The notes under the pieces were generated by a model that saw nothing but the letters and a program-made list of their open reading frames with translations, was not told the DNA's origin and ran no database searches. This document shows, in pieces, positions 4,163 through 46,100 of a stretch of 64,000 nt of DNA; position 1 is the first letter of the stretch; each line of letters opens with the position of its first letter. Made by a program: the position numbers and the translations under genes. The stretch comes from a virus, in IMG/VR virus record IMGVR_UViG_3300025849_000016, positions 32,001 through 96,000 of that record, one strand, 5' to 3'.

Positions 4163-7100
4163 CTATGCGTTTAAAAAGTACTGTAACGCTAATGGTGTTC
4201 CAGATACCCCTTGGGCGAAGTTTGTTGTTGCTCCTACAATAATTGTAGAATTATCAGTTGTGGAAATAGTATTTCCTGTAATTTGTATATTACCTGCAAT
4301 TAAAGTATTAACATTTAGAGTAGCACCACCGCCACCAATTTGTGCATTAATATACGTTCTAATAGCTCGTTGTGTTGGAACAATATTATCACTATCAGCT
4401 GCAAAAGTACCGTCGGTACTAAATTCTCTAATTGTAGCACTTGTTCCGCCTAAGCTAACACTACCAAGTTGTAGTTCTTGTAGTCCGCTAACACTAAAGT
4501 TATCAGCATCTAGTGTAGCAGTACCTGTTGCTTGTTCAACTGTAAATAAGTCACCAACTCTAAAGTTACCATCTTGGTCAGTTGATGTATAGAACACTCG
4601 ACCTCCGCCATTTTCTTTAATTTCGTTTTGTGAGTTAGGACTATTGCTCGGTATTCCTGGATAATTAGTTTCTGTAAAATTTCCTGTACCAATATCTAGG
4701 AAGTCATGACCTGTTAATCGCACCTGTGAGTAGCGTATTCTTAATGTTACTTGCGCAGCGTGTGCTGGTTCTAAATCTACTTCAATATCTGGACTTACTT
4801 GTAATCTAGCAGCATACGGCCCAGATCCTGTAAGTTCAAAAACTTCGACAAGTTTATAAATTGTTGGATCGCCTGCAATTTGTACATTTGATCCTGGAAG
4901 AGGTTCTTCTATTGATCCTTCTACATATAGATACTTACCACTTTGTTTAACATCAGCATAACCGTCGCCGTCGATTGATGTACTACAAGATTCATAACCT
5001 GTTCCTCGATTACTAAATGTCGGAGCAGTCAAAACACCGTCGCCTATTCTAACTTCAAGTGGAGCATCTACAGTATTAATTGGATCAGTAATTGTTACTG
5101 TTGGTGGATTAATTGGATCGTATCCTGATCCAGTTTCAAATAAAGATATTTGAAATATTTTTCCGCTTGCAACTTTTACTCTACCTCTTGCAGTTGTTCC
5201 AGATACTGGATCACCAATAACTATCCTAGGTTCGACTTTGTATTGAGATGTTTGGTCTAATGTAGTTTCGATTGCTGTTCCGGGCACAAGATGATCCCAT
5301 CCGCTTGAATCGTCACTCATTTTCTTAATTGTTGCAAGTTTTGTACCAGCATTGTACGTATCAATATATCCATATTGTCCTACGCCTAAACCGTCTTCTA
5401 TATATACTGCCATGCCAATATAATCTGAACTATTAGCTGTATCTGTTGCTGATAAATTTATTGTAGTACTTGTACCTGCTTGAGCATTATTAATTGATGT
5501 TTGATAATCTTCGCCCCCATATTGTCCAGCAGTGTTTAATAATCTAATTTCAAAAATGCCGCCATCATTTACATTTACAGTACCTACCGCAGCATCAATG
5601 CCCTCACCAATAAATGTATAAGTTGCAGTTGTATATGATACACCAGCATTTGCATATTCTAATGCTAATACTCGATCACCATCTGTGATTGTATTTGCTA
5701 TAATTGCTTCAGCATAATAGTTATTAACTGTACTTGTATTTGGAGTTTCTGTTGAATCAATACCTTCAGCAACTGATCCAAAGTCTCCGTAAGAGTTGTT
5801 ACCATTTGTAGCACGAATCTTACCACCGTCTTCTGCTAGGTAACCAATATGGTTATAGTATGTAAACACACTAACAAGTTCTGATCTACCTAAGTTTGTA
5901 ACCCAGTAACCGATACCGTCACTTAAAATTTGTGTAAAGTCGTTAGCAACAATACTGTCGTTTCCGCCGTCATGTAATGCACCGTCAACTTTTAATCCAA
6001 TGCACCCGTTGCCAAATGTTGATACATTTTGAATATATGGTGATTTACTATGTATCCATGCTAACCTATCTGTTGAGTCTTCGCCTGGGTCTAATGATAC
6101 ATACGCACCAGCAGTCGGACGACTAGTTCCATATGAATTTGCTCCAGTTAGTGTACCATTTAGTCCAGAAAGAGAAACATTTCTTATACCACAGCCGTTA
6201 CGTACATAAAACATGTTTGATGTTTCAAAACCTGTGTCTGGTTTAATTCTAACTGAACGTAGTTCGTCACCTACAAGTGCAGTATGTGCAGGTATTGATA
6301 TAGGTAATGTTTCTAAATATTCACCTGTTTTAATAAACACTGTTGTATTTACAACTTGTTCTGCAGGTAAACTATTTAAATTACCAGCAGTAATTGAAGC
6401 TGTAATAAGTCCTACTAACGTATCATAAGTTGCTTCTGCATCTGCTTCTTCTGTTTTAGTGCCATCAATTGTTTGTGTGACAGGTGTTACAACACTGTTT
6501 TCAGTTTGATAGTTTGTAGCCGGAGCAACATTACTTAACACTGCATCAACAACTTCTAAACTATAATTTATAGATGCTACTGTTTCAGTTTCTTGTCCGG
6601 TGATATAACTTGCACCTGCTTCGGTAAAATATGATTGTGCTGTTTTTCTTGTTTCAACATTTCCGCCATGTGATATATCATATCCTACTGCTTTTACAAT
6701 CTTTTTCATATCACGTAAGCACAGAGCTTTATCATATGTAAATCCGCCTGTAAATGGTGCAATAGCATTTGCAATTTGATAATCAGTCCATTCAACAACT
6801 TCTGCAGCAATAAAATCTATGTTTGCATCTAATAATGCCTTTGCATTATGACGCTGTGTTGACTGTAAAATATAGTCCATGCAATATTTTACAGTTAAAA
6901 ACGGTCTATCTAAAGTAGTTCCGTAACCAGATGCATTAACTCCGCTTGGTGAAACATAAAATACATTATTTACAAAACCAAAGTCAATCCATTCCGGTGC
7001 AGTAGCAGAAGAGTTAACAGCTAAAACTTGCCCTGGAGATCCGATAGGTAATCTAGCTGGACCAGATCCTGCAAAATAAAGTATGTCGCCGTCAGTAGTT

Positions 7101-8425
7101 AATGAATTTTCTTCAGCAGTTGCACTTACAATATTCCAATATGTACCTAATGTGTCTAAATCTGGTCTGTTTGAAGCATCATCTGCTGTATGTGCTAACA
7201 TGCATATATATGCATTGTTACTATAACTAACAACATCACCTAAAGCATAAGTTGATGCATCTGTCCAAGTAGCTTGCCAAGAAAATCCTTCATTAAGTTT
7301 ATCCCAATAACTTACGTTAGGCGGAGTATTTGCTGTGTTATCTGCATTACATACATATGTATATCCGTTTAATCTTACTACATCTCCAACTTTATATGCT
7401 GTAACATTAGACCAATCACCTTGTAAATTAAAACCAGTTATAAAAAGATCCCAGTCAGTAGGGGAAGTTGAAGGAACAGAATTACTATGATCTGTTTTAG
7501 AAATATATGTATAACCACCATATGTTACAATATCACCTGGTTGATAAGTTGTACTGTTACTCCAAGTGTCTTCAAATTCTAAACCAGGTAAATAAACATT
7601 CCAATTAGAAGTATCTGAAGCAAAAGTTGATGTTGAAGTATGTTCGGCAATTGAAATATATAAGCTCGGACCGTTTTTAACGATGTCGTTAACTGTGTAT
7701 CTTGTAGATGGTGCCCAATTTGCCCTATAGTTAGTGCCATCATATAATAGATTCCAATTTAATATGTCTGTTTCTAATCCGTCTGCATCTGTAGCTGTCG
7801 AAGTGTGACCAGTTGCACAAAAATAGATTCTTCCAAAATAGTTTACAATATCATAATTTTTATATCTAGTACTTGTTGACCAATTGCCTTTCCAAGATAG
7901 CCCTTCAGAAAATAGATTCCATGATACTTGATCTAATTCTAATCCATCAACAACAGTTGCCGCACTAGTATGTGCTGTTTGACATATGTAAGTAGCTGTT
8001 CCATATTTTACAATATCATTAACTTTATATTTGGTATTTGTGCTCCAAGCACCTGCATAGTTTAGTCCTTCAGCAAACAAATCCCAATTTGCAATATTAC
8101 CTTCAAGACCCACTAACGCATCGGCATTAGATGTATGTCCTGTGTTACATATATACAAGAAGCCGCCGTTTTTAACAATGTCATTTACTTTATAATATGT
8201 TGCAACAGCCCAAGCGCCGCGCCAAGCTAATCCGTCACCAAATTGTTCCCATTTAGGTTGTACATCATTAAGATCTGTTTCTAAATCAGCTTGTGAAGTA
8301 TGTGCAAGAATTGCAATAAATGTTTTACCGCCGTAAGACACAATGTCGTCGCGGACATATTGAGTACCTGTGGTCCAAGTACCTTTCCAGATAAATCTGA
8401 TTCTACCAAGTTTAAATTCGGCCAT
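4163..8425 (-). CDS. Tail spike/fibre: 8 CBM5/12-like repeats, beta-helix domain, helical CxRD insert
   Basis: Eight W.G.W...T.Y...D.V repeats (~7130-8390). FYVSPSG...PFLTVK and KTGEYLE.LPI..P....LVGDELRSV form a pectin-lyase-like beta-helix cap. C-terminal GRVFYTSTDQDGNFRVG. Paralog of 8480..13603. Confidence 0.8.
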   Translation of the reverse strand: MAEFKLGRIRFIWKGTWTTGTQYVRDDIVSYGGKTFIAILAHTSQADLETDLNDVQPKWEQFGDGLAWRGAWAVATYYKVNDIVKNGGFLYICNTGHTSNADALVGLEGNIANWDLFAEGLNYAGAWSTNTKYKVNDIVKYGTATYICQTAHTSAATVVDGLELDQVSWNLFSEGLSWKGNWSTSTRYKNYDIVNYFGRIYFCATGHTSTATDADGLETDILNWNLLYDGTNYRANWAPSTRYTVNDIVKNGPSLYISIAEHTSTSTFASDTSNWNVYLPGLEFEDTWSNSTTYQPGDIVTYGGYTYISKTDHSNSVPSTSPTDWDLFITGFNLQGDWSNVTAYKVGDVVRLNGYTYVCNADNTANTPPNVSYWDKLNEGFSWQATWTDASTYALGDVVSYSNNAYICMLAHTADDASNRPDLDTLGTYWNIVSATAEENSLTTDGDILYFAGSGPARLPIGSPGQVLAVNSSATAPEWIDFGFVNNVFYVSPSGVNASGYGTTLDRPFLTVKYCMDYILQSTQRHNAKALLDANIDFIAAEVVEWTDYQIANAIAPFTGGFTYDKALCLRDMKKIVKAVGYDISHGGNVETRKTAQSYFTEAGASYITGQETETVASINYSLEVVDAVLSNVAPATNYQTENSVVTPVTQTIDGTKTEEADAEATYDTLVGLITASITAGNLNSLPAEQVVNTTVFIKTGEYLETLPISIPAHTALVGDELRSVRIKPDTGFETSNMFYVRNGCGIRNVSLSGLNGTLTGANSYGTSRPTAGAYVSLDPGEDSTDRLAWIHSKSPYIQNVSTFGNGCIGLKVDGALHDGGNDSIVANDFTQILSDGIGYWVTNLGRSELVSVFTYYNHIGYLAEDGGKIRATNGNNSYGDFGSVAEGIDSTETPNTSTVNNYYAEAIIANTITDGDRVLALEYANAGVSYTTATYTFIGEGIDAAVGTVNVNDGGIFEIRLLNTAGQYGGEDYQTSINNAQAGTSTTINLSATDTANSSDYIGMAVYIEDGLGVGQYGYIDTYNAGTKLATIKKMSDDSSGWDHLVPGTAIETTLDQTSQYKVEPRIVIGDPVSGTTARGRVKVASGKIFQISLFETGSGYDPINPPTVTITDPINTVDAPLEVRIGDGVLTAPTFSNRGTGYESCSTSIDGDGYADVKQSGKYLYVEGSIEEPLPGSNVQIAGDPTIYKLVEVFELTGSGPYAARLQVSPDIEVDLEPAHAAQVTLRIRYSQVRLTGHDFLDIGTGNFTETNYPGIPSNSPNSQNEIKENGGGRVFYTSTDQDGNFRVGDLFTVEQATGTATLDADNFSVSGLQELQLGSVSLGGTSATIREFSTDGTFAADSDNIVPTQRAIRTYINAQIGGGGATLNVNTLIAGNIQITGNTISTTDNSTIIVGATTNFAQGVSGTPLALQYFLNA

Positions 8426-8479: not shown

Positions 8480-11400
8480 TTATGGAGCTGTAAAAAGTTG
8501 ACTCATGATGTAAAGTCCTGAATAACTTTGAAGATTAACCGAAGCATCAAAATTTATATTTGTTGCTGTGGCGTTATTATTTAAATTAATTCCAGTAATA
8601 TCAAATTGTAATTGACTCGTAAGTAATGCGTTTGCATTAACTACTGAACCACCGCTTGAAATACGACTTGTAATATATGCACCAATTGCTTTCTGTGTAG
8701 GCACAACATTATCGCTGTTATCACTAAATGTAGGATCTGTACTAAATTCTCTTACTACAGCATTTGTACCGCCTAACACAATACCGCCAATTCTTAATTC
8801 ATCTAAACCTGATAAATCAAATTGCGATGCACTTATTGTAACTGTACCGGTAGCTTGATCAACCTTAAATAACTCACCAACTCTAAAGTTACCATCTTGG
8901 TCAGTACTTGTATAAAATACTCGGCCGCCGCCAGAACCAGCTGTTTCTTGGTTTTGTTTTGGATCATTTTCTGATGTGTATCCTTCAGTATACCTAGATG
9001 GATATGCAGTTTCTATAAAATTACCCGAACCAATGTCGAGAAAATCATGTCCTGTCAATCGTATTTGACTAAAGTTTTGACGTATATTAATAAATGTATC
9101 ATGTATTGGTGCTTCATTGATATCCAATGGCGGAGTAATTTGCAATTGTGCTGAAAGAGAAGGTTCAGTACCTTGTAAATTTTCAATTTTTTGTACATAA
9201 AATTGTTTATTAAGACCTGTAAATGTTATAGAGTCACCTGGTCCAGGGCTTCTTAATAAATTACTAACTTGAATAATTCCGCCTACTGGATATATATCAG
9301 CATACCCGTCACCGTTGATTTCTATAATTGTTTTAAAATATAAGGAACCTGGATCTAATATACTCGGTTGTCCTAAGACACCTGACTGTATTCTAATATC
9401 AAACTGGGCATCAGTTGCAGCTAGGCTATCAATTAACTGTCCTACAGGAGAATTAGTATATCCGCTACCTGGATCGACTATAATAAAAGAGTCAACTCTA
9501 CCAGATATAATGTCAGGTCTTGCAACAGCCCTAGCACCGTATTCTAAAAATTGTACGTTAGACGAACTTGTACTATTAATTAATATCCAAGAACTATATG
9601 AAATGTCATCACTTGTATATTCAATATATTTTAATTTTGACCAAGTTTGTCCGCCAATTGGAGTAATTGCTCTCCAGTTAATGGCATCTTGACTAACGTT
9701 TAAAACACCATTATTAGCTACTGCTAGAAACAATCCATTATTAATATCTATTTTCCAAGAACCAACACTAATAGCATTTGGATCAGCTTGGGCTCCTTTA
9801 AAATGATTACCGATTGTAAATTGTATAGATTCATTATACACATTACGAGCATACAGAGGTAAACTTGCAAGAGTGCCGCCTATATCTCTTGCACATGCAA
9901 CAAATGCTCCTTCGCCGCCAGCAAAATCTGTAATTTCATATCCTGATAAAGTTGATAAAATGCTTCCTCCTGCAATAGGAGTAAATGATGTTCCGTTGTC
10001 GATAGATTCGTAAGCAATCCCAGTAGTATCTATAGCAATCCATCTATTACTATCATAACCGATAAAACTAAATCCTCCTGCTTTACCAGTATTACTTTGA
10101 GTCCAAGATACACCGCTGTCAGTTGATACTGCTATATTTTGTGTTCCTGTAGCTACTGCTATTACAGTAGCTCCATATACTTCTACATCTTGATAATTTA
10201 ATGCTGGAACTTCTGTTGATGATGCCCAATTTATTCCGTCGGATGATTCTGCTACACTGCCTGAGGTTGCAAATGCTATAAATTTAATTCCTGTCCAAAC
10301 TAATGATTGCCAATCTGCACTAGATGGCAATGTTGTATTAACCCATGTTGTTCCATTATTAGAATATGCAACAACATTTGATCCTATAGTAGTAATAACA
10401 TTTATCGAACCATTTGATGCTGCACTACCTAATTCTTTAAAACTTCCTGAAGCTTGAGCAAATGAATTGTAAGCTGGATCATCGATGTTAAATGAAGGTT
10501 CAATTACATATCTAGATGTACCATCTAATGTTGTTGCAAGTGCATTACCGGAAACTAATGTATTCCATCCTGTCTGTCCCCACATATTTTCTATAGTTGC
10601 TATTTTTGTACTAGGGTCATATGCACTTATTTTCCCCCATTGACCTACGCCAAGTCCGGCTTTAATAAAAAGATTCATTCCAACATAACTATTATCTTCT
10701 GCTAAATCAGATGCGGACAATGTTATACTTGTTAAGCTGCCAAACTGTGCATTGTTTTCAATTTTTCTAAAATCTGCGCCGCCTATGTTACTTGAATCGT
10801 CGCTTTCTTTGATTCGTATTTCTGCTATACTTTTATATCTTGTTTTTTGATTTTGTAAAGATCCTGCAATTCCTGATCCTGTAATAGTATAAAGTGCTTC
10901 TGTATATTCTTGTCCTGCATGAGAAAATCCTACACCAACAATTTTTCCATCTGCATCTGTATATGTTTCTTTAACTACTGCTTCACTAGATCTGTTATTT
11001 AAAGTAGCAGTAATAGGCAGTTCTTCTGGATTTACTCCTTCAGCAACTGATCCAAAGTCTCCGTAAGAGTTGTTTCCGTTAGTTGCTCTAAGTTTGCCAC
11101 CATCAGTAGCAAGATATCCTATATGACAATAATATGTAAACACAGACACAAGTTCTGATCTACCTTGTCCATCTGCCCAATACCCAATGCCGTCACTTAA
11201 AATCTGTGTAAAGTCGTTAGCTACCATTGATCGATATCCACCGTTATGTAAATTTCCATCAATTTTCATTCCAACACATCCTGTGCCAAAAGAACTACAA
11301 TTTTGTACATATGGTGATTTATTTTCAATCCAAACTGATGTATCATCTGGTCCTTCACCAGGATCGAGTGATACATATGAACCAGCACTTGGGCGTCTTG

Positions 11401-33857: not shown

Positions 33858-36800
33858 TTACAATGTAATCATAGTTTTAGCTACTTTGTAAACCAATGTA
33901 TTTGCTGTTGACGGTGTAGCCAACAACTCAATATTGCCCCCTGAAACTTGTGTGCTGAAGGTTGCAAGTGCTGAACTGCCAGTAAATAAAACTGCATATT
34001 CTGTTGATTTTACGCCTGCATTATTTGTGCTATCATGTAATATTAACATTTCTTGTGCTTGATATTCGCCATCTGATGCATTATTAATTTGTATTAAAAC
34101 TTTTGCAGTTCTAAAGTCTGCCACTGCCCATTCTGCAATTTTAACAGCATTTGTACCGCTTGCTGTTGTTGTTTCAGTGTCTAATGCAACATCTTGAACT
34201 TGCAACGGTGCTTTAGGTGTTGATGTTTGCACGCCAACAAAATCAGAACTCCCGTCAACAAATAATGCATGAGTTTGTTGATTTGTTTCAACTCTAAAAT
34301 CTACACTTGCTCCGGCATCATTAATAGTTACAGCACCTTCAATCGACGCACCTTGGTCTACTGTTAATGGATTTTGTATATCAATAGTGCCAGTACCTGC
34401 TGCACGTAATTCTAAATTACTATTAGAAACTGTTGTTCCTATATAGCTACTATTAATTTCAATATCGCCAACATCAAGTCTGCCAAATCCTGTTTCAGTT
34501 AATTCGGCTGCCATTACGCCATTTGCAAAAAACTTAATAGTATCATTATCTGCGCCAGGAGTTGTTTCTGTGCTAATATATGTATCTCCATCTACATCGC
34601 CGGTGTTTTGCAAACTAATCCAATTAGCTCCATCATATCCTTCATAATAATTGTTAGTTGTATTAAATCTAATTTGTCCTTGAACAGGAGTTGGTCGCTG
34701 TACAGTTGTACCTACTGGTACTTTTATTGCATCAGTGCCATTGATATCAACACTAACGCCCGGAGTTAAAGTATTAACTCCTATTCTGTGCTCAACACCA
34801 TCTACAAATAATGTGTCTGTATCAACTGTTAATTCGTCAAGTGTTAATGCATCAAGTGTAATACTATTTGACCATACTGGAACTGATCCGTTACTTTTTA
34901 ATACATACCCGTCAGGTCCAATTCCTAACTTAGTTAAAGAATCACTATTTAAACTTAAATTACTAGCAGCGTATAATATATCACCTGTTGAGTAACTATT
35001 TAAGTTTGTACCACCTTTTGTAATAGGCATTGAACGTGTATTGTTTTCCGGATTTAGATAGTACGAACCTGACTGTCCATTAAGTGTACTTGCATCTAAT
35101 TGGCCGCCGTCTGCTGTGCTAAGAACACTAACTTCACCGTCAGCTGTAATATCAAACTGAGATTTATTAAATGCTGCAACTCCAAAATTAGTATAGGTAA
35201 CATCTCCAGCAGTAGGATCAATAGGATCAACTTGTATTTCAAGTTCTCCAAAATATTTTAATTCGCCGCCTTCGGTAACACTATCACCTACAATTGATAT
35301 TGGATTATTTGTTGCAATAGTCATACTACGTACAGTTCTTTTATACGTTCCGTCGCCGTACAATGCAGTATTTTGGTTAGCTGTACCTGTACCTAATCGT
35401 GTAGTTGAAATAGTTCCACTAACAATATTAGTTGCATCAATATTTAAGCTATTTAAACTAGAATAATTATCTACATTTTGACTAGATGTGTTTATAGTAC
35501 CAATAATTTTTACATTTTGTTCACGGAAGTTTGTTGTACCAGAATTTTCTGCGGTAATGTCAACTACTGATTGTATTGTTCCGTTTACGCTTTCAATTGC
35601 ATCATTTCTTAGAGTATGAAGTGTAAATGAATTAGTTGTAATACTACCTATAAAATAAAAGTTACCGTCAGTTAATCCTGTAGGCGGTGTTGATGAAATT
35701 AGTCTAATTCCTGTACCAGTAGCATATCCGTGATTGGGAAGAAATATTCTATTACCGCTTGTGCTAACATTACGTACTCTAAATAAATGAGTTCCATTAC
35801 TACTTGTTCCAAAGTCTACTTGACTTGCAACAGATAAAGTATATGATGTATATACTTCAAACGTATCAGCATCTATTTTCTTTACAAAATATACTACACC
35901 ATTTTCTAATCCGCCAATTTCAGTATTGCCATTTGCGTTATATTCTATAGGATCTCCGTTTATAAGACCGTGTGCTGTTTTAATAATTTGATTACTAGTG
36001 TAATTAATTTCATTGTCTACAGCATTTGCGCTAAACGTTGTTGTTGTAAATCCTGCTTGGTTAATATTTTGTATAACTGCATTATTGTCTTCAATGTATT
36101 CGTTAGTTGTAACACTTGCAACAAATTTTACATTGTTTCCAGTAAGATTAACATATAATCTATTTTCAACTGTTTGCACATCGACAGTAAATGCACTACC
36201 GCCTGATCTTCCACCTAAGTTAGCATCACTTGCGCTAAGAGTATCGCCTGTTGTATACCCAGTGCCGCCTCTAGTTAGATCGACTACAGTAACAACACCT
36301 GTTCCGTCAACTGTAATGTCAGCTTTTGCTCCACTACCGGTGCCGCCTGTTAATGGTACATTTATATATGTACCTGCTGAGCCGTATCCACTACCGCTAG
36401 GCAACGTATTTGTATTTGTAAATGTAGCAACGCCTTCTCTATATTCTACAATTGTACCTTCTGCAAGTGTATTTGCTCCTGTTACATCTGTACCATTTAC
36501 AAAATTATGTATTGTACTATCATCAGGATCATCGATTATTAAGAATTGACTTTCACTGTCATTTGATAAGAAATAATTGTCCTGTGCATCAACACTACCA
36601 GTTGTAGCTGTTGGATAAACATTCAACGCACCTGTTGTACTTCCGCTAAGTGTATCTGCTACGTTTGTTGTAAACGTACCGCTAACATTTACAAGAGTAA
36701 TGCTTGTATCTGAGCTTACCGCAGCTTTAACTTCACCTGTTGCTCCGCTATTTGCTTGCGTTATTGTTTCACCTTTTACAACAGATGTAGCTGTATCAAC

Positions 36801-39800
36801 TGTTAAAACTTCTTGAGTATATGCTTCAATAACATTGTCGCCTGATAATACTTCGTCAGCAGGAATATTTTCAAATAAAGTTAATCTTTCTTCAAATTTA
36901 TCTAAAGTAAAACTACTGTTTGTTCTAATAGGCGGTATTAAGTCGCTGTTAATTTTACCAGAACTATTTAATTGTACAACAGCACCCGGCACACTTGAAG
37001 ACGTAACTTGTTTATCTAAGAAATCTCCTAGTCTGTTGTTCATAAAGGTTCGTTGAGCTAACTGGGTAGTTAATCTACCATGACTTGCTCCGCCTGGGTC
37101 ATTATCACCTAGTGTAACATCTGTAGATATAGCTTCAATAGTTACATCTGATAAACTTAATTGTAAACTATCTAACTGAGCAATAGAAACTTTGTTTGTA
37201 AATGTAACATTACCTGTTCTATTTTGAGCTGTAATGAATTTACCAACTTTAAAATCACCTAGTTCTGTTGTACCTGAAGTATATACTCTTCCAGGCAAAT
37301 CTTCGTATTGTTCATAATCAGGAATACTCTGGCCGCCATTGATTGGCATAGCGTTATAATCTGTACCGGACCCTGCATATTCCCAAGTATGTGCAGAACT
37401 ATTAACAATAGACGGGCGATGTAAAAAACACTGGAAGCCTGGTAACAACGCAATATTGTTAACTGATCCGCCTGATAATGTTGAACGAATAAGTATTTTA
37501 GCACTATGTAAATTTGTTTTATCAGCAACACTAGATATAGAAATATTAGTATTACCATTAGCATCAACATTAATAGTACTGCTTGCTGTAAATTTAACAT
37601 AGCTAGTAACACCTGAAACAACAACTTGGTTAATACTAACAACAAGAGTGTTAGTGCCGCTATCCCAACTATACACATACGCATTATTTGTGTTGCCACT
37701 AACTGTACCTGTAATTTCTTGACCTACTGTAAAGTTATATGAGCCTGCTCCTAATACTATAGTTTGATATATTGTATGAGCATTTTTAATTTCATTAATA
37801 AAAAATTCTTCGTCGCCTGATATAAATTTATGCGTGCCAGAAGATGTAGTGCCTAGTTCTGCTAAATTACTTAATTCTTCATCTTCATATAACTGAAATT
37901 CGTTAGTATTAATTAAACTTACATAATAATAGGTTTCGTCGTAAATGCCAAATATATCTGCATTACCATTAGAATCATATCTTACTCTATCTCCGTTAGA
38001 AAACCCATGTGTTGTAATAACAAATTTATTATTGGCTATATCTACTGTACTGCTATTTGCACTAAATGTTTTTGTTGTAGTGCTTGTTTTGTAATCATCA
38101 GTAACATCATCTCCGTTACTGTTTACAAATCTTGTAATGTAGTGTTCTGTTACTGCCCTGTCAAACCCTATTAAATCGAATGTTTGGAATACTCCGTCAA
38201 CGCCATTTGTTGCTATTATTCCTCTATCAAATTCAAATGCTTCGCTCCTAAAGCCACTTGCTCTTAGTGCGTAAGTACCAAAGTTTGTTGCAGAGTTTGT
38301 AATTGATAAGTAGCCGCCGCTTTGAGCATAAGAACCATTTTTACAAAAAATCTGGAAACAACTAACAATTTGTGAATATGCATTATTTGATACTCTATAA
38401 CCAGTTCCTCCAAAAGATAAGATAGTAAATGCGTTACCAACAATACTTGGATTTTGTACTGGCGCTGCGCCTGCAACAGGATTTTCAGCTTCTAATTGAT
38501 TAACAGGAGTATTTGGTTGGAATACTTTTGACCCATCTACATTACACCCGTTTCCTCCTAAAAAACTAATGATAGAACAGTTTTGTACATAAGGTGAAGC
38601 TGTAATTATTGTTTTTTGTATAGGTAACCCTGGATACGAATGTCTACTCACACCATGGTCGTCTGGATCATCAAATGCTACAGCAAAATTATATGTTCCT
38701 GTAGGTATTCCGTTTGCATCTAGTTTATCTCTAAATGTAAATCCGCTCATATACGCTGCATTACGAATACGGAAAATATCTTTTTGAACATTTTGAGGAC
38801 GTATAACTACAGAGCGCAACGCATCGCCCATTATAGAAACGTTGTCTGGTACGACAATAGGATTGTCTTCTAAATATTCTCCAGTGCCTATTTTAATAGA
38901 TACAAGATTAACAGTAAAAGTTCCATAAACTATTGCACTGGCCTGTCCTATACCTAGATCAAGAATAGTAATTGTTTCGTCCCATAAATCGTCGTGAGCA
39001 GTTTTCGAACTTGCGCCGTCGTCATATGTATTATTTGTTACTTGTGTAACAGTTGTTTGGAAAGGAGCATTAGCATTGCCGTCTTGATCATCAGTTAATG
39101 CAATATTTCTAATAATATCACCTGCGATATGTTTTGCATACTCTAACGCCGCAACAGTTTGTGGTTTTTGATTATCAATTACTTCTTGCGTAGATGTTGT
39201 TCCTAAATAATACTTTTTACCAGCTTCAATAGATTTACTATTACCACCAAATTTTAAATCGTATATTACTGCGTCAACAATATATCCTACATCTCTTTCA
39301 CAAGTTGTACTGTTATAAGTAAAGCCACTCCATATTCCGCCTGCATTTGCAACTTGATATGTAATGTATGCTATAACTTCTTTTTGTATAAACGTTTTGT
39401 TTAATGTTAAAAGTTGAATCGCATCATTTTTTGTGTCAGTAACTGTAACTTTTGGCACATAAACATTTTCACTAGCAATTTCACATGCTTTCTTAATGCT
39501 TGCTACGGGCTTTATAAATCCATCATTACTGTCACTACCTGCAACACTATCAACATAGATCATGTTTGAAGTGATGCCAGGATTCTCAAAACTTAGTGTT
39601 CCAGATCCGTCTGTAGTGATAACTTGCCCGGGCGCACCTGCTGTAGGTGGAAGTTTAAAATCATAGGTGCTAGTAATACTTTCAGGTACTTTAATTACAA
39701 CACCGTTAGTTCCGTTTGCACTAGCTTCTCTAATTGTAATAGAATCATTATCTTCAATGACAACAGGAACTTTAATATTCATTGCTGCGTTTGCAACTTC

Positions 39801-40040
39801 AACAACATTAGATCCGTCTGCTTCTAATACAATTTTACCGTTTGCACCGCTTTCGTCAATGCTTACACTAGTGTCACCGTCGTGTATTTGTTTTGTAATT
39901 TCTCTAACTGAACTGTCAGATTTTTTCATAAACAGTTTACCATCAGCAGTATTAAGAGCTAATTGCCCTTCATCCATTTGTCCTGCTGTTGGTGCTCTAC
40001 CTGCAACACTAGAGCGGAGATGCTTAATCTTACTTGCCAT
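33858..40040 (-). CDS. Tail fibre/spike with T4 gp37-type N-terminus, beta-helix domain and helical CxRD insert
   Basis: LRSSVAGRAP.A....EGQLALN..DGKLF.K resembles the T4 gp37 start. IYVDSVAGSDSNDG...SIKKA / GTGEYLEDNPI form a beta-helix cap. Three HG...G....Y barrel repeats. C-terminal FRTAKVLIQI...EMLILHD...EYA domain. Confidence 0.8.
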   Translation of the reverse strand: MASKIKHLRSSVAGRAPTAGQMDEGQLALNTADGKLFMKKSDSSVREITKQIHDGDTSVSIDESGANGKIVLEADGSNVVEVANAAMNIKVPVVIEDNDSITIREASANGTNGVVIKVPESITSTYDFKLPPTAGAPGQVITTDGSGTLSFENPGITSNMIYVDSVAGSDSNDGFIKPVASIKKACEIASENVYVPKVTVTDTKNDAIQLLTLNKTFIQKEVIAYITYQVANAGGIWSGFTYNSTTCERDVGYIVDAVIYDLKFGGNSKSIEAGKKYYLGTTSTQEVIDNQKPQTVAALEYAKHIAGDIIRNIALTDDQDGNANAPFQTTVTQVTNNTYDDGASSKTAHDDLWDETITILDLGIGQASAIVYGTFTVNLVSIKIGTGEYLEDNPIVVPDNVSIMGDALRSVVIRPQNVQKDIFRIRNAAYMSGFTFRDKLDANGIPTGTYNFAVAFDDPDDHGVSRHSYPGLPIQKTIITASPYVQNCSIISFLGGNGCNVDGSKVFQPNTPVNQLEAENPVAGAAPVQNPSIVGNAFTILSFGGTGYRVSNNAYSQIVSCFQIFCKNGSYAQSGGYLSITNSATNFGTYALRASGFRSEAFEFDRGIIATNGVDGVFQTFDLIGFDRAVTEHYITRFVNSNGDDVTDDYKTSTTTKTFSANSSTVDIANNKFVITTHGFSNGDRVRYDSNGNADIFGIYDETYYYVSLINTNEFQLYEDEELSNLAELGTTSSGTHKFISGDEEFFINEIKNAHTIYQTIVLGAGSYNFTVGQEITGTVSGNTNNAYVYSWDSGTNTLVVSINQVVVSGVTSYVKFTASSTINVDANGNTNISISSVADKTNLHSAKILIRSTLSGGSVNNIALLPGFQCFLHRPSIVNSSAHTWEYAGSGTDYNAMPINGGQSIPDYEQYEDLPGRVYTSGTTELGDFKVGKFITAQNRTGNVTFTNKVSIAQLDSLQLSLSDVTIEAISTDVTLGDNDPGGASHGRLTTQLAQRTFMNNRLGDFLDKQVTSSSVPGAVVQLNSSGKINSDLIPPIRTNSSFTLDKFEERLTLFENIPADEVLSGDNVIEAYTQEVLTVDTATSVVKGETITQANSGATGEVKAAVSSDTSITLVNVSGTFTTNVADTLSGSTTGALNVYPTATTGSVDAQDNYFLSNDSESQFLIIDDPDDSTIHNFVNGTDVTGANTLAEGTIVEYREGVATFTNTNTLPSGSGYGSAGTYINVPLTGGTGSGAKADITVDGTGVVTVVDLTRGGTGYTTGDTLSASDANLGGRSGGSAFTVDVQTVENRLYVNLTGNNVKFVASVTTNEYIEDNNAVIQNINQAGFTTTTFSANAVDNEINYTSNQIIKTAHGLINGDPIEYNANGNTEIGGLENGVVYFVKKIDADTFEVYTSYTLSVASQVDFGTSSNGTHLFRVRNVSTSGNRIFLPNHGYATGTGIRLISSTPPTGLTDGNFYFIGSITTNSFTLHTLRNDAIESVNGTIQSVVDITAENSGTTNFREQNVKIIGTINTSSQNVDNYSSLNSLNIDATNIVSGTISTTRLGTGTANQNTALYGDGTYKRTVRSMTIATNNPISIVGDSVTEGGELKYFGELEIQVDPIDPTAGDVTYTNFGVAAFNKSQFDITADGEVSVLSTADGGQLDASTLNGQSGSYYLNPENNTRSMPITKGGTNLNSYSTGDILYAASNLSLNSDSLTKLGIGPDGYVLKSNGSVPVWSNSITLDALTLDELTVDTDTLFVDGVEHRIGVNTLTPGVSVDINGTDAIKVPVGTTVQRPTPVQGQIRFNTTNNYYEGYDGANWISLQNTGDVDGDTYISTETTPGADNDTIKFFANGVMAAELTETGFGRLDVGDIEINSSYIGTTVSNSNLELRAAGTGTIDIQNPLTVDQGASIEGAVTINDAGASVDFRVETNQQTHALFVDGSSDFVGVQTSTPKAPLQVQDVALDTETTTASGTNAVKIAEWAVADFRTAKVLIQINNASDGEYQAQEMLILHDSTNNAGVKSTEYAVLFTGSSALATFSTQVSGGNIELLATPSTANTLVYKVAKTMITL

Positions 40041-40060
40041 TTTTCAATCCTATATAGTAT

Positions 40061-40090
40061 GGGTCAGGTCCTAAGACGCCCGGTGGTCAA
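40061..40090 (-). promoter_or_regulatory. GC-rich element in the late 5' leader (candidate RNA structure)
   Basis: UUGACCACC-GGGC-GUC-UUAG-GAC-CUGA-CCC followed by the palindrome CUAUAUAG, between promoter and SD. Confidence 0.45.
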
Positions 40091-40102
40091 AAGTTGTTAT
40101 TG

Positions 40103-40110
40103 TATTTATT
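40103..40110 (-). promoter_or_regulatory. T4-like late promoter core AATAAATA(CAATA)
   Basis: Intergenic, just after the stop of 40115..50875. Confidence 0.7.
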
Positions 40111-40114
40111 GCAT

Positions 40115-43100
40115 TTAGAAAGTGCCTTCGTCAATTGTGTCTGTCCAAACTGGAACTCCGCTACCGTCAGTTGTAAGTATTTGATTACTTGTTGATGCGT
40201 CTGCATCTCCTGATGCTGCTGTAACTTGAACATCCCCTGTGCCGTTACCATATAAAATGCCTTTTGATGTTAGTGTGCTTACACCTGTACCACCATGTTC
40301 AACTGCTAGATCACCGCTTGTAACAATGCTGTTAACAGTTAAGTCTTGTACATATAAATCGTTAAACTCTGCATCGCCAGCATTACCACTGAATATTTCG
40401 TTTGAGTTAGTTGAGTCTGGCTTAAATGTAAATCGTCCTGTTGATTCATCATATCCAAAGAATCCAACCTTTGCATCTGTTCCATTGTGCCAAAGGAATT
40501 CTATACCTCTGTCTTTCGAATCGTTAATGCTCGGAGCTGTATCACCACCTAAAGTAAACACCGGATCATCAATAGTAACTGTTGTACTATCTACTGTGGT
40601 AGTTGTACCTTGAACAGTTAAGTTACCAGCAATAGTCACTGTACCGCCAACTCCTGCTGTGTCAGGATCAATTATTAATCCGCCTGTAGTAGTACCAATT
40701 GTAGTTCCATTAATAGTAATATCATCAATGTCTGCTTGACCGGTAACATTTAATGTTCCATTTAGTCCTAGTGTGTTGCTTGAGAATGTAAAGTTTGCAC
40801 TGTCAATTAATCTACCACCTGTGCCAGCTACTGGCACTCTATGCTGTGTTAGATCTTCTACTACTGATCCTGCTACGGTTGCAACTCCGTCAACATTAAT
40901 AGTACCACTAACTGTAGCATCACCTGTTATAGCAAGTGTATCAGAAGTAAATGTTAAGTTTCCGCTATCTTCTACTTCTCCATTAGTGCCAGCTAGTAAA
41001 ACCCTACCATCTGTTAAGTCACTTATTTTAGCTGTTGCTAAAGTAGTTGCGCCTTGCACATTTAGTGTTGTGCTTACATCTAAAGCACCAGTAATATTTG
41101 TCGAATCTTGTAATTCAATTGTGCCTGATCCATTAGTTCTTAATTCTAAATCAGTTGCACTTACTGTAGTTTGAATTACATTTGTATCAATTAATATATC
41201 ACCAACATCAACTCTGTTTGAATAAGTTGTATCGTTATATAGATCCATCAATGTAGATGAACTTGGCATATGAACCCTTAGTCCGTTATTATACGAACTC
41301 ATAGTAGTATCACCTAAGTAAATTGAATTACCATTTAAGTATAGATCATTCCAACGTAAATCTTCAGTACCTAGGTCATATGTATTTGATACACTTGGAA
41401 CAATATGGCTATCAACTCTACCACCAAATGTAATAGTTTGAGCAGTAGTTGCACCTAAATCAACATTACCATTAACTTGTATATTACCTGTAATTGTTGC
41501 TGCGGCGTCAACAGTTAGCAACGAGCTACTAAATGTAAGCTGTGCAGTATCTTCTACTTCGCCATTACCGCCTGCAATTAAAATACGATCCTCAGTTAAA
41601 TCAGTGACAGCTAGAGTTGGAAAACTAGATCCTGATGATGATTCTAATTGTGGTACAGTAAGTGTTGTACCATCAAAAGTAAATCCAGAATCGTCAACTA
41701 ATGCACCGTCTGTTCCGACAAATATAACACGACCTGCTGTTAAATCTGAAACAATTGCACTTGCTAAAGTAGTTTCTCCTGTTACGCCTAATGTACCTGC
41801 AATTGCTGTATCGCCACTTGCAGACGCTACTGTTAGCTTGTTAGCACCAACTACAAAGGTTGTGCCGTCATATGTTAAGTTACTACTACCACTTAGTCTG
41901 CCGCCTGTACTAGGAACAACAATTTGATTGATTGTTAAATCTTCAACAGTTGCTTCGGCTAGTGTTGCCAGTCCGTCTATATCAACAGTGCCGCTTACTG
42001 TAGCATCACCTGTAATATTTGTGCTATCAAGTAATTCAATTGCACCTGTACCTGCAACACTTAATTCTAAATTAGCATTTGATGCAGTTGTTCTAATTTG
42101 GTTACCACTAATTGTAATATCATCTAATTCAATAGTATTAGAACCAAATATTGTACCGTTTATAGTAAGTGTTCCATCAACTAGTAAATCGTTTGTTACA
42201 CTTGCTATTGCAAGGGCAGTACTAGGTTTAAATGTATCTGCTGCTGCATCATAAATTAGTGCTTGTCCGTCTATTATTCCTGATGTATCAACATCAATTA
42301 AGTCATTTATGTTCGGAGTTACATTTTCAAATTCTGTACCAAGTGTACCAGCATATGTATATGCAGCTCTTTCAGGGGTTATATAGTTACTTGAATCATA
42401 ACGTGCTGATGTTGTAACTCTAAAGTCGTCAATGTTACCATTTATATAACCTTCTAAACCATTTGCTGCTGCTGGGTTACCACCAATGTTCCAATCTGTG
42501 GCTGTTAATTCTCTAGTGTAAGCTGAACTTGCACTTATTGTACCGTTAATGTGTCTATATAGTGTGCCGCCTGTTCTTGTAAAACTTACATAATACCATG
42601 TATTTGGAGTTAAAGATGTTGCTGTTAAAATATTTCCATTACTGTCGGTTACACCAAGTGACCCACTAATTTGAAACGATGTAGTGTCATCTGCAGAGTA
42701 AATATAACCTGATACACTACTATCATGGTACACCCAAAAATCAATTGTAAAATCACTAGTACCAATTGCTGTTCGTGTTACATTTAGATAAGAATTAGTA
42801 CCGTTACCTAAATAACTACCAGTTCCGAATTTTTTAACTGTTTGTGTAATTTTTGCATCACCATTGGCAGTAATTGTGCCAGCAATATTACTTTCATCTA
42901 AGAATGTTGTAGCATCTTCACTACCATTACTAGGAATTAACAATAATGTGTTTCCGTATGCAGTATCACCAAACGATCCGCCATAGCGTAAATATTGTCC
43001 TGGTTTAATATTTGATATTGAAACATCACCGATACCATCAACACTTGCTGCTGCTAAGTCAGTTGTAAAATCAGCTGTTTTATATGTTGTAACACTAAAC

Positions 43101-46100
43101 ACACCTGTGCCACTATCAAACGATAGATCACCGCCTGCACTTACTGCTGCACGTACTCTAGTGTCAGTATAATATTTGTTTGTACCTTCGCTTAAATCAG
43201 ATGTGCTATGATTGCTTATATCACTTACAGTGCCAGTAACATCACCAGTTAAGTCACCTATAAATGTCGCAGCAACAAACGTTTCTGTTCCTATAGTCCA
43301 TCTATTATTTGTTTCGTCCCATAGCAATGTAACATTAGTGTCGTCACCACGTTCAATTTCAAGTCCTGCATCTTCAGTTGCACTACCTGTTGCATTTGAA
43401 TTTAATTTAATTGTATTGTCAGCTAAATTAATTTCTTCTGTGTTTACAGTTGTTGTAGATCCACTTACAGTTAAGTTGCCACTAATAACAACATTGCCAC
43501 TTGCTGTAACTGTAGCTGCTGTAATATCGTCTGTTGTTAATGTACCAGCTACAGTAACATCATTAAATTCAACATCATCAGATGTTCCTACTGCTTGACC
43601 AATACTAATTACACCTGTTGCATTATTATATGTTACACCTGTACCGCCACTTAAATCAGCAGAAGTAATATAAGCAGAGCCAGAATTGTCAAATCCTATT
43701 TCACCTGTTGCACTATTATATGTTATCGGAGATGCTGCTGCACTAATTAATCCACGCACTTCTGCATCTGTACGCTCAGTAAATGATATAACACCAGTTG
43801 TGTTATTATAATTAATATCACCGCTTGCACTAATTTTTGCTCTTACTTCTGCGGCACTTGGACCTGTATAAGTAAACGCACCAGTAGCAGTATTATATGT
43901 CATACTTCCGTCGCCGCCGGCATCAGTTAAAGTAATTGCTTGTCTTGCTCTAGCTTGTGTAAAGTATTCGTTAGTAGAACCTTCTGATAAATCGTCAGTT
44001 GATTTATTACCAAAATCAGTATTAAAATCAGATGTTTTATATGTAGTTACACTAAACAAGCCTGTTGCACTATTATATGTTAAGTCGCCACCTGCACTAA
44101 AGTTTCCTCTAATATCTGCTGCACTTGGACCTGTATACGTAAGTGCACCAGTTGAATTATTATATGCAAAAGATCCAAACCCTCCTGCATCAGTAGCACT
44201 TATACTAGTTCTTGCTCTAGCTTGTGTAAAGTATTGATTAGTAGAACCTTCTGATAAATCGTCGGTGTCAAAATTGCTAATATCACTTACTTGTCCAGTA
44301 ATGTTACCAGTAACAGCAGCATAAACTCTGTTAAACTGTGCATCACCTAGTGTTCCAGTAAACACTTCTGAAGTGTTAGTAGCATTTGGTATAAAGCTAA
44401 AGCGCCCTGTACCTTCGTCTAATCCAAAAAATCCTACTTTTGCAGATGTATCCCAGTGTAGGAATTCAATACCTCTGTCTTTACCATCACTTGCACTTAG
44501 ACCACTTATGCCAACTCTTAGTACTGGATCTTCAGTTGTTGTTACAGTTGATTCTACAGTTGTAGTTGTACCTTGGACAGTTAAGTTTCCTGTAACAGTT
44601 AGATTATTGTCAACACTTACATTTTGATTTGCTGCATCAATTACAATCCCGCCACCTGTTTCACCGTTTGCACGTAGGTAAAGTGTGTTTGATGCGAAAA
44701 TTCTAAAGTTATCACTACCGTCATTGTCAAACGCACCAACGTTTGTCATACGTAATCCGCTACCGGTTTGTGCAATACGTAATGTATCTGCTACTGTAAG
44801 AGAATTGCCTGTGGCATTTGCTGCTATTACACCACTTGCTGTTATAGCTGCGGTAGTTGTTTCACCTGTTACTCCAAGTGTTCCGCCAACTGTAGTATTA
44901 TTAGTAACTTCTAATGTGTTGCTCGGTATTAAAACGCTACCTGTACCAGCTGCTTTAAGTTCTAGATCGGTATTTGTATTGTATGTTTCAATAAAATTAT
45001 CATCTATACGAATTTGATCTGTTTCAAAAATTGCAGAACTAATTGTACCACTTGCATTAATATCTACACCACTTAGTGTTGCATATGTTAAAGTTCCGCC
45101 TGCTGTAATGTCACCTGTAACAACTAAGTTACGCCCAACTGTTGCATCTCTTGTTAGAATTAAATCATTACTAATTGTTACATCATTTCCTATTGTAACA
45201 TCATCTGGTAAACTAACAGCAATTTTATTATTACTTACTGTTACAGTTATTTCATTAGTAGTTCCTTCAACAGTTAATTGTTCAGTTAATAAGTCAATAG
45301 TAGTTGAATTTGATCCGTCTGTAATATCTAATGTTTCTACTAATGTTGATGTTGAAACACCTGTAACTCTACCGTATTCATCTACAGTTAACACAGGTAT
45401 AGAAGTTGCACCTCCATAAGTGCCTGACGGATCAACACTTAATGCATCTAATGCATATGTAACTTCATTGTTTGAAATTGCGCTTGAAAGACCAGTGCCA
45501 CCTGTAAATGTTATAGTTTCGCCACCTGCTACTACATCAGTGTTAGACCCGTCACTTAACCCTATACTTGTAGTTATTGACTGTGTTGTTACTGTTGTAA
45601 TACGCCCTTGCGCATCAACAGTAATAACTGGAATTGAAGTTGTAGAACCGTATGTTGCTGCTGTTACACCCGAGTTAGGCAATGACAATACAGGAGTACT
45701 ACTTTCGCCACTACCGCCTGTTATAGTTATATGTCCAGATGTAGCACTAATTGATTCGATATAATCACCAGTTGTATCTGTACCTAATGCTACACTGTTT
45801 GCACCTATTGTAAGTGCAACGTTTGATACGTCTGCGCTTCCATCAATACTAAACGATCCAGTTACGTCACCTGTAGCAAAAGTTACTGTTCTAGAATTTT
45901 CCCAAGCACTTGCAGTATCAGCATTACCTGTTACATCTCCTGTTACGTCACCTGTTACATCTCCTGTTACGTCACCTGTAAATGTTGCATTAGTTCCATC
46001 AGTGCCATTTTCTAATATTTTACTAGTACCATTACTTGCAAATATATCACCAATTATACTGCCTGAAAGTTTATTAACACCTAAACTTACTGGTTTATTA

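Follow-up and report, generated by a model that had tools for sequence, protein, structure and literature searches.

The 64,000-nt stretch analysed here (the window) covers positions 32,001 to 96,000 of IMG/VR record IMGVR_UViG_3300025849_000016, a 106.7-kb fragment that is 31% complete, and it contains two minus-strand genes for fibre-type proteins, each carrying an insert with a C-x-R-D motif. The region has no megablast match among the GenBank phages. The features with which we are concerned are these:

33858..40040, minus strand: gene for P0001, a 2060-aa tail-fibre-type virion protein (PHROG 5342 'tail fiber protein', E 8e-188)
39465..39563, minus strand: putative beta-helix N-terminal cap, P0001 residues 160-192 (MIYVD...KKACEIASEN), upstream of the insertion point, placed by the PF07602 match of the homologue L042
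38946..39440, minus strand: the unit, a phycobiliprotein/BBAG-type globin domain of 165 aa with six helices, P0001 residues 201-365 (AF2, Foldseek, VIA, hhalign)
39291..39302, minus strand: C-E-R-D motif (Cys247, Arg249, Asp250) at the start of helix E, aligned with phycocyanin alpha Cys84, Arg86 and Asp87
38796..38903, minus strand: P0001 residues 380-415 (VSIKIGTGEY...RSVVIRP), where the putative beta-helix resumes, collinear with L042 right after its cap helix
4163..8425, minus strand: gene for P0002, a 1420-aa protein with eight CBM5/12 repeats (PF02839, E 2.5e-44, eight stretches) followed by a cap, a unit and a beta-rich part
6365..6859, minus strand: paralogous unit, P0002 residues 523-687 (phmmer against the first unit, E 7e-18)
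6710-6721, minus strand: C-L-R-D motif of the P0002 unit, within 6365..6859

P0001 residues 196-358 are matched by PHROG 4527 ('short tail fiber'), and P0002 is assigned to PHROG 9851 ('tail fiber'). Cys247 is the sole cysteine of the P0001 unit. A third unit is present in the same record beyond the window, in a 2456-aa ORF (G000:C1:26271-27560), and is interrupted by about 278 residues holding a degenerate unit in which LWNT replaces C-x-R-D.

The first-pass annotation had pointed to positions 38950-39430 as an insert with a helix resembling that of the phycocyanin alpha chain. The peptide concerned, CERDVGYIVDAVIYDLKFGG, is present at 39243-39302 on the minus strand as residues 247-266 of the 2060-aa ORF, and a plus-strand reading of the interval is ruled out by stops throughout the frame. 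The interval itself (residues 204-364) matches the bounds of one domain unit almost to the residue, and the phycocyanin helix is genuine; it corresponds to residues 84-103 of R-phycocyanin alpha (1f99_A), with 10 of 20 ungapped identities to CERDVGYIVDAVIYDLKFGG. A six-frame scan of the window with the 1f99_A helix gives CERDVGYIVDAVIYDLKFGG as the sole top match, with runners-up at 7/20, and among 100 codon-shuffled windows the best score per window was 7-8, reaching 9 twice and 10 never. The paralogous peptide CLRDMKKIVKAVGYDISHGG (6662-6721, in ORF 4163-8425) scores 7/20, which taken singly is at chance level, and the claimed homology of the P0001 and P0002 inserts is established instead by the phmmer match and by 29% identity between them. 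A 'CARDIGG' sequence at 9836-9895, in a 1711-aa ORF, was considered as a further copy, and with 7/20 identities and no profile match it is attributed to chance.

Relationship to phycobiliproteins

Single-sequence searches with the window's units give weak signals. Against the PDB, the P0001 insert alone has phycoerythrocyanin beta as the third of three matches (E 0.63) and the P0002 insert alone has phycoerythrin alpha 7f86_A as its top match (E 0.38), in both cases over 70-90 residues; P0001 and P0002 have no match to PF00502, and neither do their isolated units, even at E 10. Such values (E 0.4-0.6), together with the chance-level score of the second copy, speak for a chance or convergent likeness of one amphipathic helix, with no ancestry shared with phycobiliproteins. 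The relatives of the units argue otherwise. With P0001 residues 190-380 as query, a database search yielded 322 giant proteins, many of which bear a precomputed PF00502 label, and three of these giant relatives, built of 15-18 tandem units of about 163 aa, score 49-55 bits on PF00502, well beyond the gathering threshold of 22.2. Among 97 single units, ten match PF00502 at E <= 0.01, the best at 7.6e-6. These 97 units, with the window's two placed first, were aligned with C.RD as the anchor (alignment A1), and the resulting profile recovers the P0001 and P0002 units from the genome at E 2.7e-44 and 1.3e-34. When run against 177,635 PDB sequences it has 31 matches, which are phycobiliproteins only (best E 4.5e-4), and the best of them pairs profile positions 9-67 with chain residues 36-104, spanning helices A, B and E. 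For profile-profile comparison eight phycobiliproteins encoded on cyanobacterial plasmids were used, and hhalign aligns unit positions 13-116 with phycobiliprotein positions 35-144 over 102 columns (Prob 88.2, E 2.9e-6); reversal of the phycobiliprotein alignment reduces Prob to 0.2. The ESM Atlas search returned unnamed viral clusters only.

The predicted fold points in the same direction. An AF2 model of residues 201-365 (pLDDT 90.9, pTM 0.88) has six helices that can be assigned as A-B-E-F-G-H, and all of the top 50 Foldseek matches to it in the PDB are phycobiliproteins. In an independent search with VIA, seven phycobiliprotein entries lead with Z scores of 14.1-11.9, the best superposition being on phycoerythrin beta (5aqd_M, Z 14.1, 144 residues at 2.8 A, chain 32-184), and below them come globin-coupled sensor domains (Z 10.8-10.5) and photocobilin globins (8j2w_B and 8j2y_B, Z 10.5 and 10.2). 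The X-Y hairpin is absent from the unit, as every alignment starts at phycobiliprotein residues 32-36 and about 46 residues precede the Cys, and the modelled unit is a phycobiliprotein globin core minus this hairpin.

The likeness is thus not limited to one helix within a different topology, but extends over 100-144 residues by profile, hhalign and AF2 superposition, with phycobiliproteins chosen each time. We consider it near certain that the units are homologous to bilin-binding globins, and a chance resemblance highly improbable. Within the bilin-binding globins, the clade of phycobiliproteins and BBAGs, the insert represents one copy of a branch specific to phages, and because it has no X-Y hairpin we file the P0001 unit with bilin-binding globins generally and not with the antenna subunits. 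The original reading of a phycobiliprotein likeness is supported by fold, profile and hhalign, with the qualification that the window's own units fall below PF00502 and lack the hairpin.

Insertion and copy number

The unit is truly an insertion, situated in the loop that leads from the cap helix to the first rung of the putative beta-helix. In a series of homologues gathered with P0001 residues 150-620, the cap helix of the insert-less L042 and L043 passes directly into the first beta strand, and the same slot holds one unit in P0001, two in L040 and L044, and four in L060. L042 matches DUF1565 (PF07602) with 31.4 bits (cut-off 20.3), its best segment being 63% identical to P0001, and because this match is continuous across the insertion point the host domain is most likely a right-handed beta-helix of the DUF1565 or pectin-lyase type; P0001 and P0002 themselves have no PF07602 match. 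An AF2 model of P0001 residues 150-620 again contains a confident unit, with the beta part at pLDDT 30-60 and unusable for showing a beta-helix. Other giant proteins in IMG/VR loci have 5-25 units in tandem, and copy number is modular, from 0 to 25 or more. Those candidate free-standing units of 90-289 aa that were inspected proved to be fragments of giant ORFs with a shared C-terminal domain.

Conservation of the CXRD site

The retention of C, R and D in two divergent copies had been taken in the first-pass annotation as a sign of selection. In A1 the invariance of these residues is circular because the alignment was anchored on C.RD, and we rely here on a census that was not motif-anchored, in which an HMM was run over all fetched long ORFs and giant proteins and 1,801 unique units covered the region. 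The Cys is kept in 97.9% of these units, the Arg in 98.7% and the Asp in 99.6%, with the complete triad intact in 97.6%, and selection on the three residues is borne out. Losses of the Cys are rare, mostly to Y, F, W or S, and R and D are then usually retained. Two further positions, D+14 (99.9%) and Y+30 (99.4%), are equally prominent in the unit family and are not phycobiliprotein residues.

CXRD has been described as the motif by which phycobiliproteins, BBAG-1 and BBAG-3 bind bilins, the two BBAGs doing so without lyases (PMC10151467). Bilin binding by the phage units is plausible, and we regard the chances for and against it as about evenly balanced. The same even weight applies to our reading of the P0001 insert, in which a copy of the bilin-binding globin branch set within a fibre beta-helix would bind a linear tetrapyrrole at Cys247. 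The tetrapyrrole would be taken up inside the infected cell and held in the cleft that helices B, E and F/G enclose, with a thioether link to Cys247 and with Arg249 and Asp250 keeping it in place in a phycobiliprotein-like manner; attachment could be autocatalytic, as with BBAG-1/3, or could proceed via a T-type lyase. We propose that a bilin on the unit would therefore place a chromophore on the assembled fibre, where its most likely use would be as a light-responsive module affecting fibre behaviour or adsorption, with photoprotection and plain stabilisation as alternative uses.

The same residues could have a different role if the unit is an apo structural module, a descendant of a bilin-binding globin that acts as a pigment-free helical spacer or bead to lengthen and decorate fibres, with C, R, D, D+14 and Y+30 forming an internal structural network. 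The freedom in copy number (0, 1, 2, 4 and up to 25 or more) is spacer-like, and since the family invariants D+14 and Y+30 are foreign to phycobiliproteins, the units may have a different pocket, or else a network with a structural role. The existence of degenerate units, such as that with LWNT in the 2456-aa ORF, is compatible with a spacer, but it also indicates that the motif is not needed for folding, which counts against a purely structural role for it. Moreover, packing alone is a poor explanation for a lone unpaired Cys that is conserved to this extent in units about 30% identical overall, where it occupies exactly the site of pigment attachment in phycobiliproteins and is accompanied by R and D.

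A further set of models fills the cleft with some other ligand, be it a tetrapyrrole such as haem, a metal or a molecule of the host surface; the unit would then serve in sensing or receptor binding and have nothing to do with bilins. The units are housed in receptor-binding-type proteins, and the next-best folds after phycobiliproteins are the haem-binding globin-coupled sensor domains and the photocobilin globins. However, among the 97 units no His is invariant or near-invariant, as the haem-ligating proximal His of haem globins would be; the sequence signal is phycobiliprotein-specific, with no haem globin found by the A1 profile in the PDB; and the conserved triad is the bilin triad. We consider a ligand of this sort improbable.

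Phages carrying the units

In its major capsid protein the window's phage shares about 70% identity with GAP32, CBB and similar jumbo myoviruses, and on this basis we conclude that it is not a Kyanoviridae cyanophage. A glutamine riboswitch, above the Rfam threshold, adjoins the capsid gene. This riboswitch family is known mainly from cyanobacteria and marine metagenomes, and its presence hints at a cyanobacterial host.

Searches of 50,697 GenBank phage records by tblastn place the units in a restricted set of viruses, with all 289 matches to the window's unit, and likewise all 136 matches to a jumbo-phage unit, falling in Synechococcus or Prochlorococcus phages or in one marine single-cell virus. 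The matches sit in gp7-type baseplate, 'short tail fiber' and structural proteins; publicly, the unit-bearing proteins are labelled 'structural', 'tail' or 'collagen repeat', and in BFVD the same fold recurs in tail proteins of cyanophages, with no annotation that points to phycobiliproteins. We found no earlier description of such phage domains in a literature search. Cultured carriers include S-PM2, P-HM1, P-HM2 and Syn9, which permits bench tests without new isolates. Restriction of the domain to phages of phototrophs, raised as a question in the first-pass annotation, holds for the cultured carriers, all of which are cyanophages, and is less clear for the window's phage, a GAP32/Rak2-like jumbo phage.

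Pigment genes in the same genomes

Searches of the window's 106.7-kb record, which is 31% complete, find none of the genes for haem oxygenase, bilin reductase and CpeT, nor psbA. In the jumbo relatives G002 (322 kb, complete) and G003 (328 kb) a haem oxygenase gene adjoins a bilin reductase gene, and the reductase is also present in G008 and G009 and not in G001 (93% complete), so that a reductase is present in four of the five distinct, near-complete jumbo genomes with units, with haem oxygenase beside it in both of the two checked. Units and reductase genes of jumbo phages are far apart, and adjacency was never seen; psbA and CpeT were not found in the five jumbo records tested (G000 to G004). 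The jumbo reductase is nearest to that of Pelagibacter phage Mosig, and only 12 GenBank phage records match it. In the reverse direction, of the 22 contigs of 70 kb or more with a reductase, 10 have units, as do five of the seven that are at least 44% complete. The closest clade of the window's phage is represented by eight fragments (about 2.7 genome equivalents), five of which have units and none a reductase.

Among 17 cultured cyanomyoviruses, 12 have both units and CpeT (PF06206), two have units only, none has CpeT only and three have neither (hypergeometric p = 0.015, uncorrected for phylogeny, the genomes not being phylogenetically independent). CpeT lies directly upstream, and on the same strand, of a unit-bearing giant gene in S-PM2, Syn1 and S-RSM4, and S-ShM2 and P-SSM7 have units and no detectable CpeT.

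We offer a link between phage bilin-pathway genes and the units as a hypothesis. Strict coupling of the units to phage bilin synthesis is ruled out by Mosig, which has haem oxygenase and PcyX and no unit, by P-SSM2, and by the reductase-free fragments of the window's clade; the first two of these counter-examples indicate that phage bilin synthesis does not require units. The absence of pigment genes from the window's record and its closest clade is what a pigment-free module would predict, whereas the presence of units in genomes that have CpeT, or haem oxygenase plus a reductase, counts against it, and we regard the apo structural module as possible though somewhat doubtful. The purpose of phage haem oxygenase with PcyA or PcyX in non-phototroph hosts has been stated to be open (PMC11480375; Chen et al. 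preprint).

Light-dependent adsorption

P-HM1, P-HM2 and S-PM2 need light for adsorption and P-SSM2 and P-SSP7 adsorb in the dark, and host receptors and/or tail fibres have been put forward as the cause of the light dependence (PMC6628666). Units are present in P-HM1, P-HM2 and S-PM2 and in neither P-SSM2 nor P-SSP7, an association that is anecdotal, as it concerns five phages of about four lineages. It is tempting to extend the bilin-binding reading and to view the units as bilin-loaded photoreceptor modules on fibres and baseplates that make adsorption light-dependent, although this is speculative and we think it unlikely. If it were true, it would explain the light-dependent adsorption of S-PM2 and P-HM1/P-HM2, and it would provide a phage-side client for cyanophage CpeT and for the haem oxygenase and PcyX of jumbo phages of hosts that do not need bilins. 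More generally, if the units carry bilin then the phage particles would be pigmented, and the reasons for light-only adsorption in some cyanophages and for the carriage of CpeT, haem oxygenase and reductase by phages, those of non-phototrophs included, would become directly testable.

Comparison with known systems

The closest parallel to the unit is offered by the phycobiliproteins (CpcA/B, CpeA/B and ApcA/B; PF00502) and the bilin-binding domain of ApcE. The unit shares with them globin-like helices A-H and, in helix E, an initial Cys-x-Arg-Asp in which a K precedes the Cys, as well as a terminal part rich in Gly. They differ in that phycobiliproteins have the X-Y hairpin, without which the unit does not have the alpha-beta monomer interface, and in that the phycobiliprotein invariants R93 and Y97 are missing in the unit, which has D+14 and Y+30 of its own. 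Phycobiliproteins are also free 17-kDa subunits, whereas the phage units are embedded in giant virion proteins, as insertions, in tandem or nested.

The BBAGs of heterotrophic bacteria and cyanobacteria, which we compare here by description, are like the unit in being a single phycobiliprotein-related globin domain, some with CXRD (Rockwell, Martin and Lagarias 2023, PMC10151467). They are defined by gene association with bilin reductase and haem oxygenase (PMC10151467), both of which are encoded by jumbo-phage relatives, but they are free cellular proteins encoded beside the reductase, whereas the units are in structural proteins far from it. The globin domains of photoglobins and photocobilins share the bilin-binding globin fold and score lower than phycobiliproteins; they belong to cellular photoreceptors, and photoglobins carry CXQD, not CXRD (PMC10151467). 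The phage bilin-pathway genes known previously (CpeT and PebS/PcyA/HO1 of cyanophages, and PcyX with HO in phages of heterotrophs) have no known phage-side client; they encode enzymes that are unrelated to the unit and co-occur with it in genomes. The known settings of phycobiliprotein-type globins are those of antenna subunits and, since 2023, of cellular BBAGs, and a branch built into virions would be a new one, to which the window's divergent single-copy unit adds the insertion series and a jumbo-phage context.

Nested and tandem arrangements of the unit

The C-x-R-D unit of the two window proteins recurs in a third open reading frame of the same record, situated just before the window.

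L160:253-7623 (G000:C1:20253-27623), minus strand: 2456-aa ORF with a third unit

About 278 residues interrupt the third unit. They include a beta-rich stretch together with a degenerate unit in which LWNT replaces C-x-R-D, so that one unit is nested within another. The sequence CARDIGG... at window positions 9836-9895 (minus strand), within a 1711-aa ORF, is a chance look-alike of the unit motif, with 7 of 20 identities to the R-phycocyanin alpha helix (1f99_A, 84-103) and no profile match.

In P0002, the 1420-residue window protein, CBM5/12 repeats at the N-terminus are followed by the cap (the N-terminal part of the beta-helix), the unit, and a beta-rich part.

P0002 residues 1-470 (in window 4163-8425), minus strand: eight CBM5/12 carbohydrate-binding repeats (PF02839, E 2.5e-44)
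Window 4163-4700, minus strand: end of P0002, a form related to the C-terminal domain of the tandem-unit giants

That domain (...FYQRSY..SASGY.FEYVGAG...VFFTSTDQNGDFRIG...) is common to the ends of many giant ORFs with tandem units (e.g. P0163 and P0191), and the short database 'proteins' matching the unit, among those inspected, are fragments that bear it. Other giant unit-bearing ORFs are as follows.

L025:5015-19066 and L026 (IMG/VR 3300008262_000105 and 3300008108_000162): giant ORF, 25 short-form units
G038:C1, ~29.9-45.4 kb (behind locus L172): 5616-aa ORF, at least 24 units

The short-form units have a period of about 113 aa, as against the usual ~163, and the capsid protein of the G038 phage is 84% identical to that of the window's phage.

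Pigment genes and phage relatives

Pelagibacter phage Mosig (MT647606) lacks the unit. Immediately upstream of its neck and tail-sheath genes lies a group of genes that includes haem oxygenase and a PcyX-like reductase.

L158 (Mosig), 39650-43977: ferrochelatase, several 2OG-Fe(II) oxygenases, haem oxygenase, PcyX-like reductase

The jumbo phage is GAP32-like, and about 1.8 kb past the window end its gene for the major capsid protein is adjoined by a glutamine riboswitch, which may hint at a cyanobacterial host.

L159:1779-1825 (G000:C1:97779-97825), minus strand: glutamine riboswitch RF01739 (42.3 bits; gathering score 35)
L159:1887-3053, minus strand: major capsid protein gene (~70% identity to GAP32-type capsid proteins)

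The capsid protein matches more than 600 IMG/VR stretches, so this jumbo-phage clade is abundant in the environment. The ~70% identity is to the capsid proteins of Cronobacter GAP32, Pectobacterium CBB, Vibrio 2.275.O and Sinorhizobium Phosso (349-469 kb).
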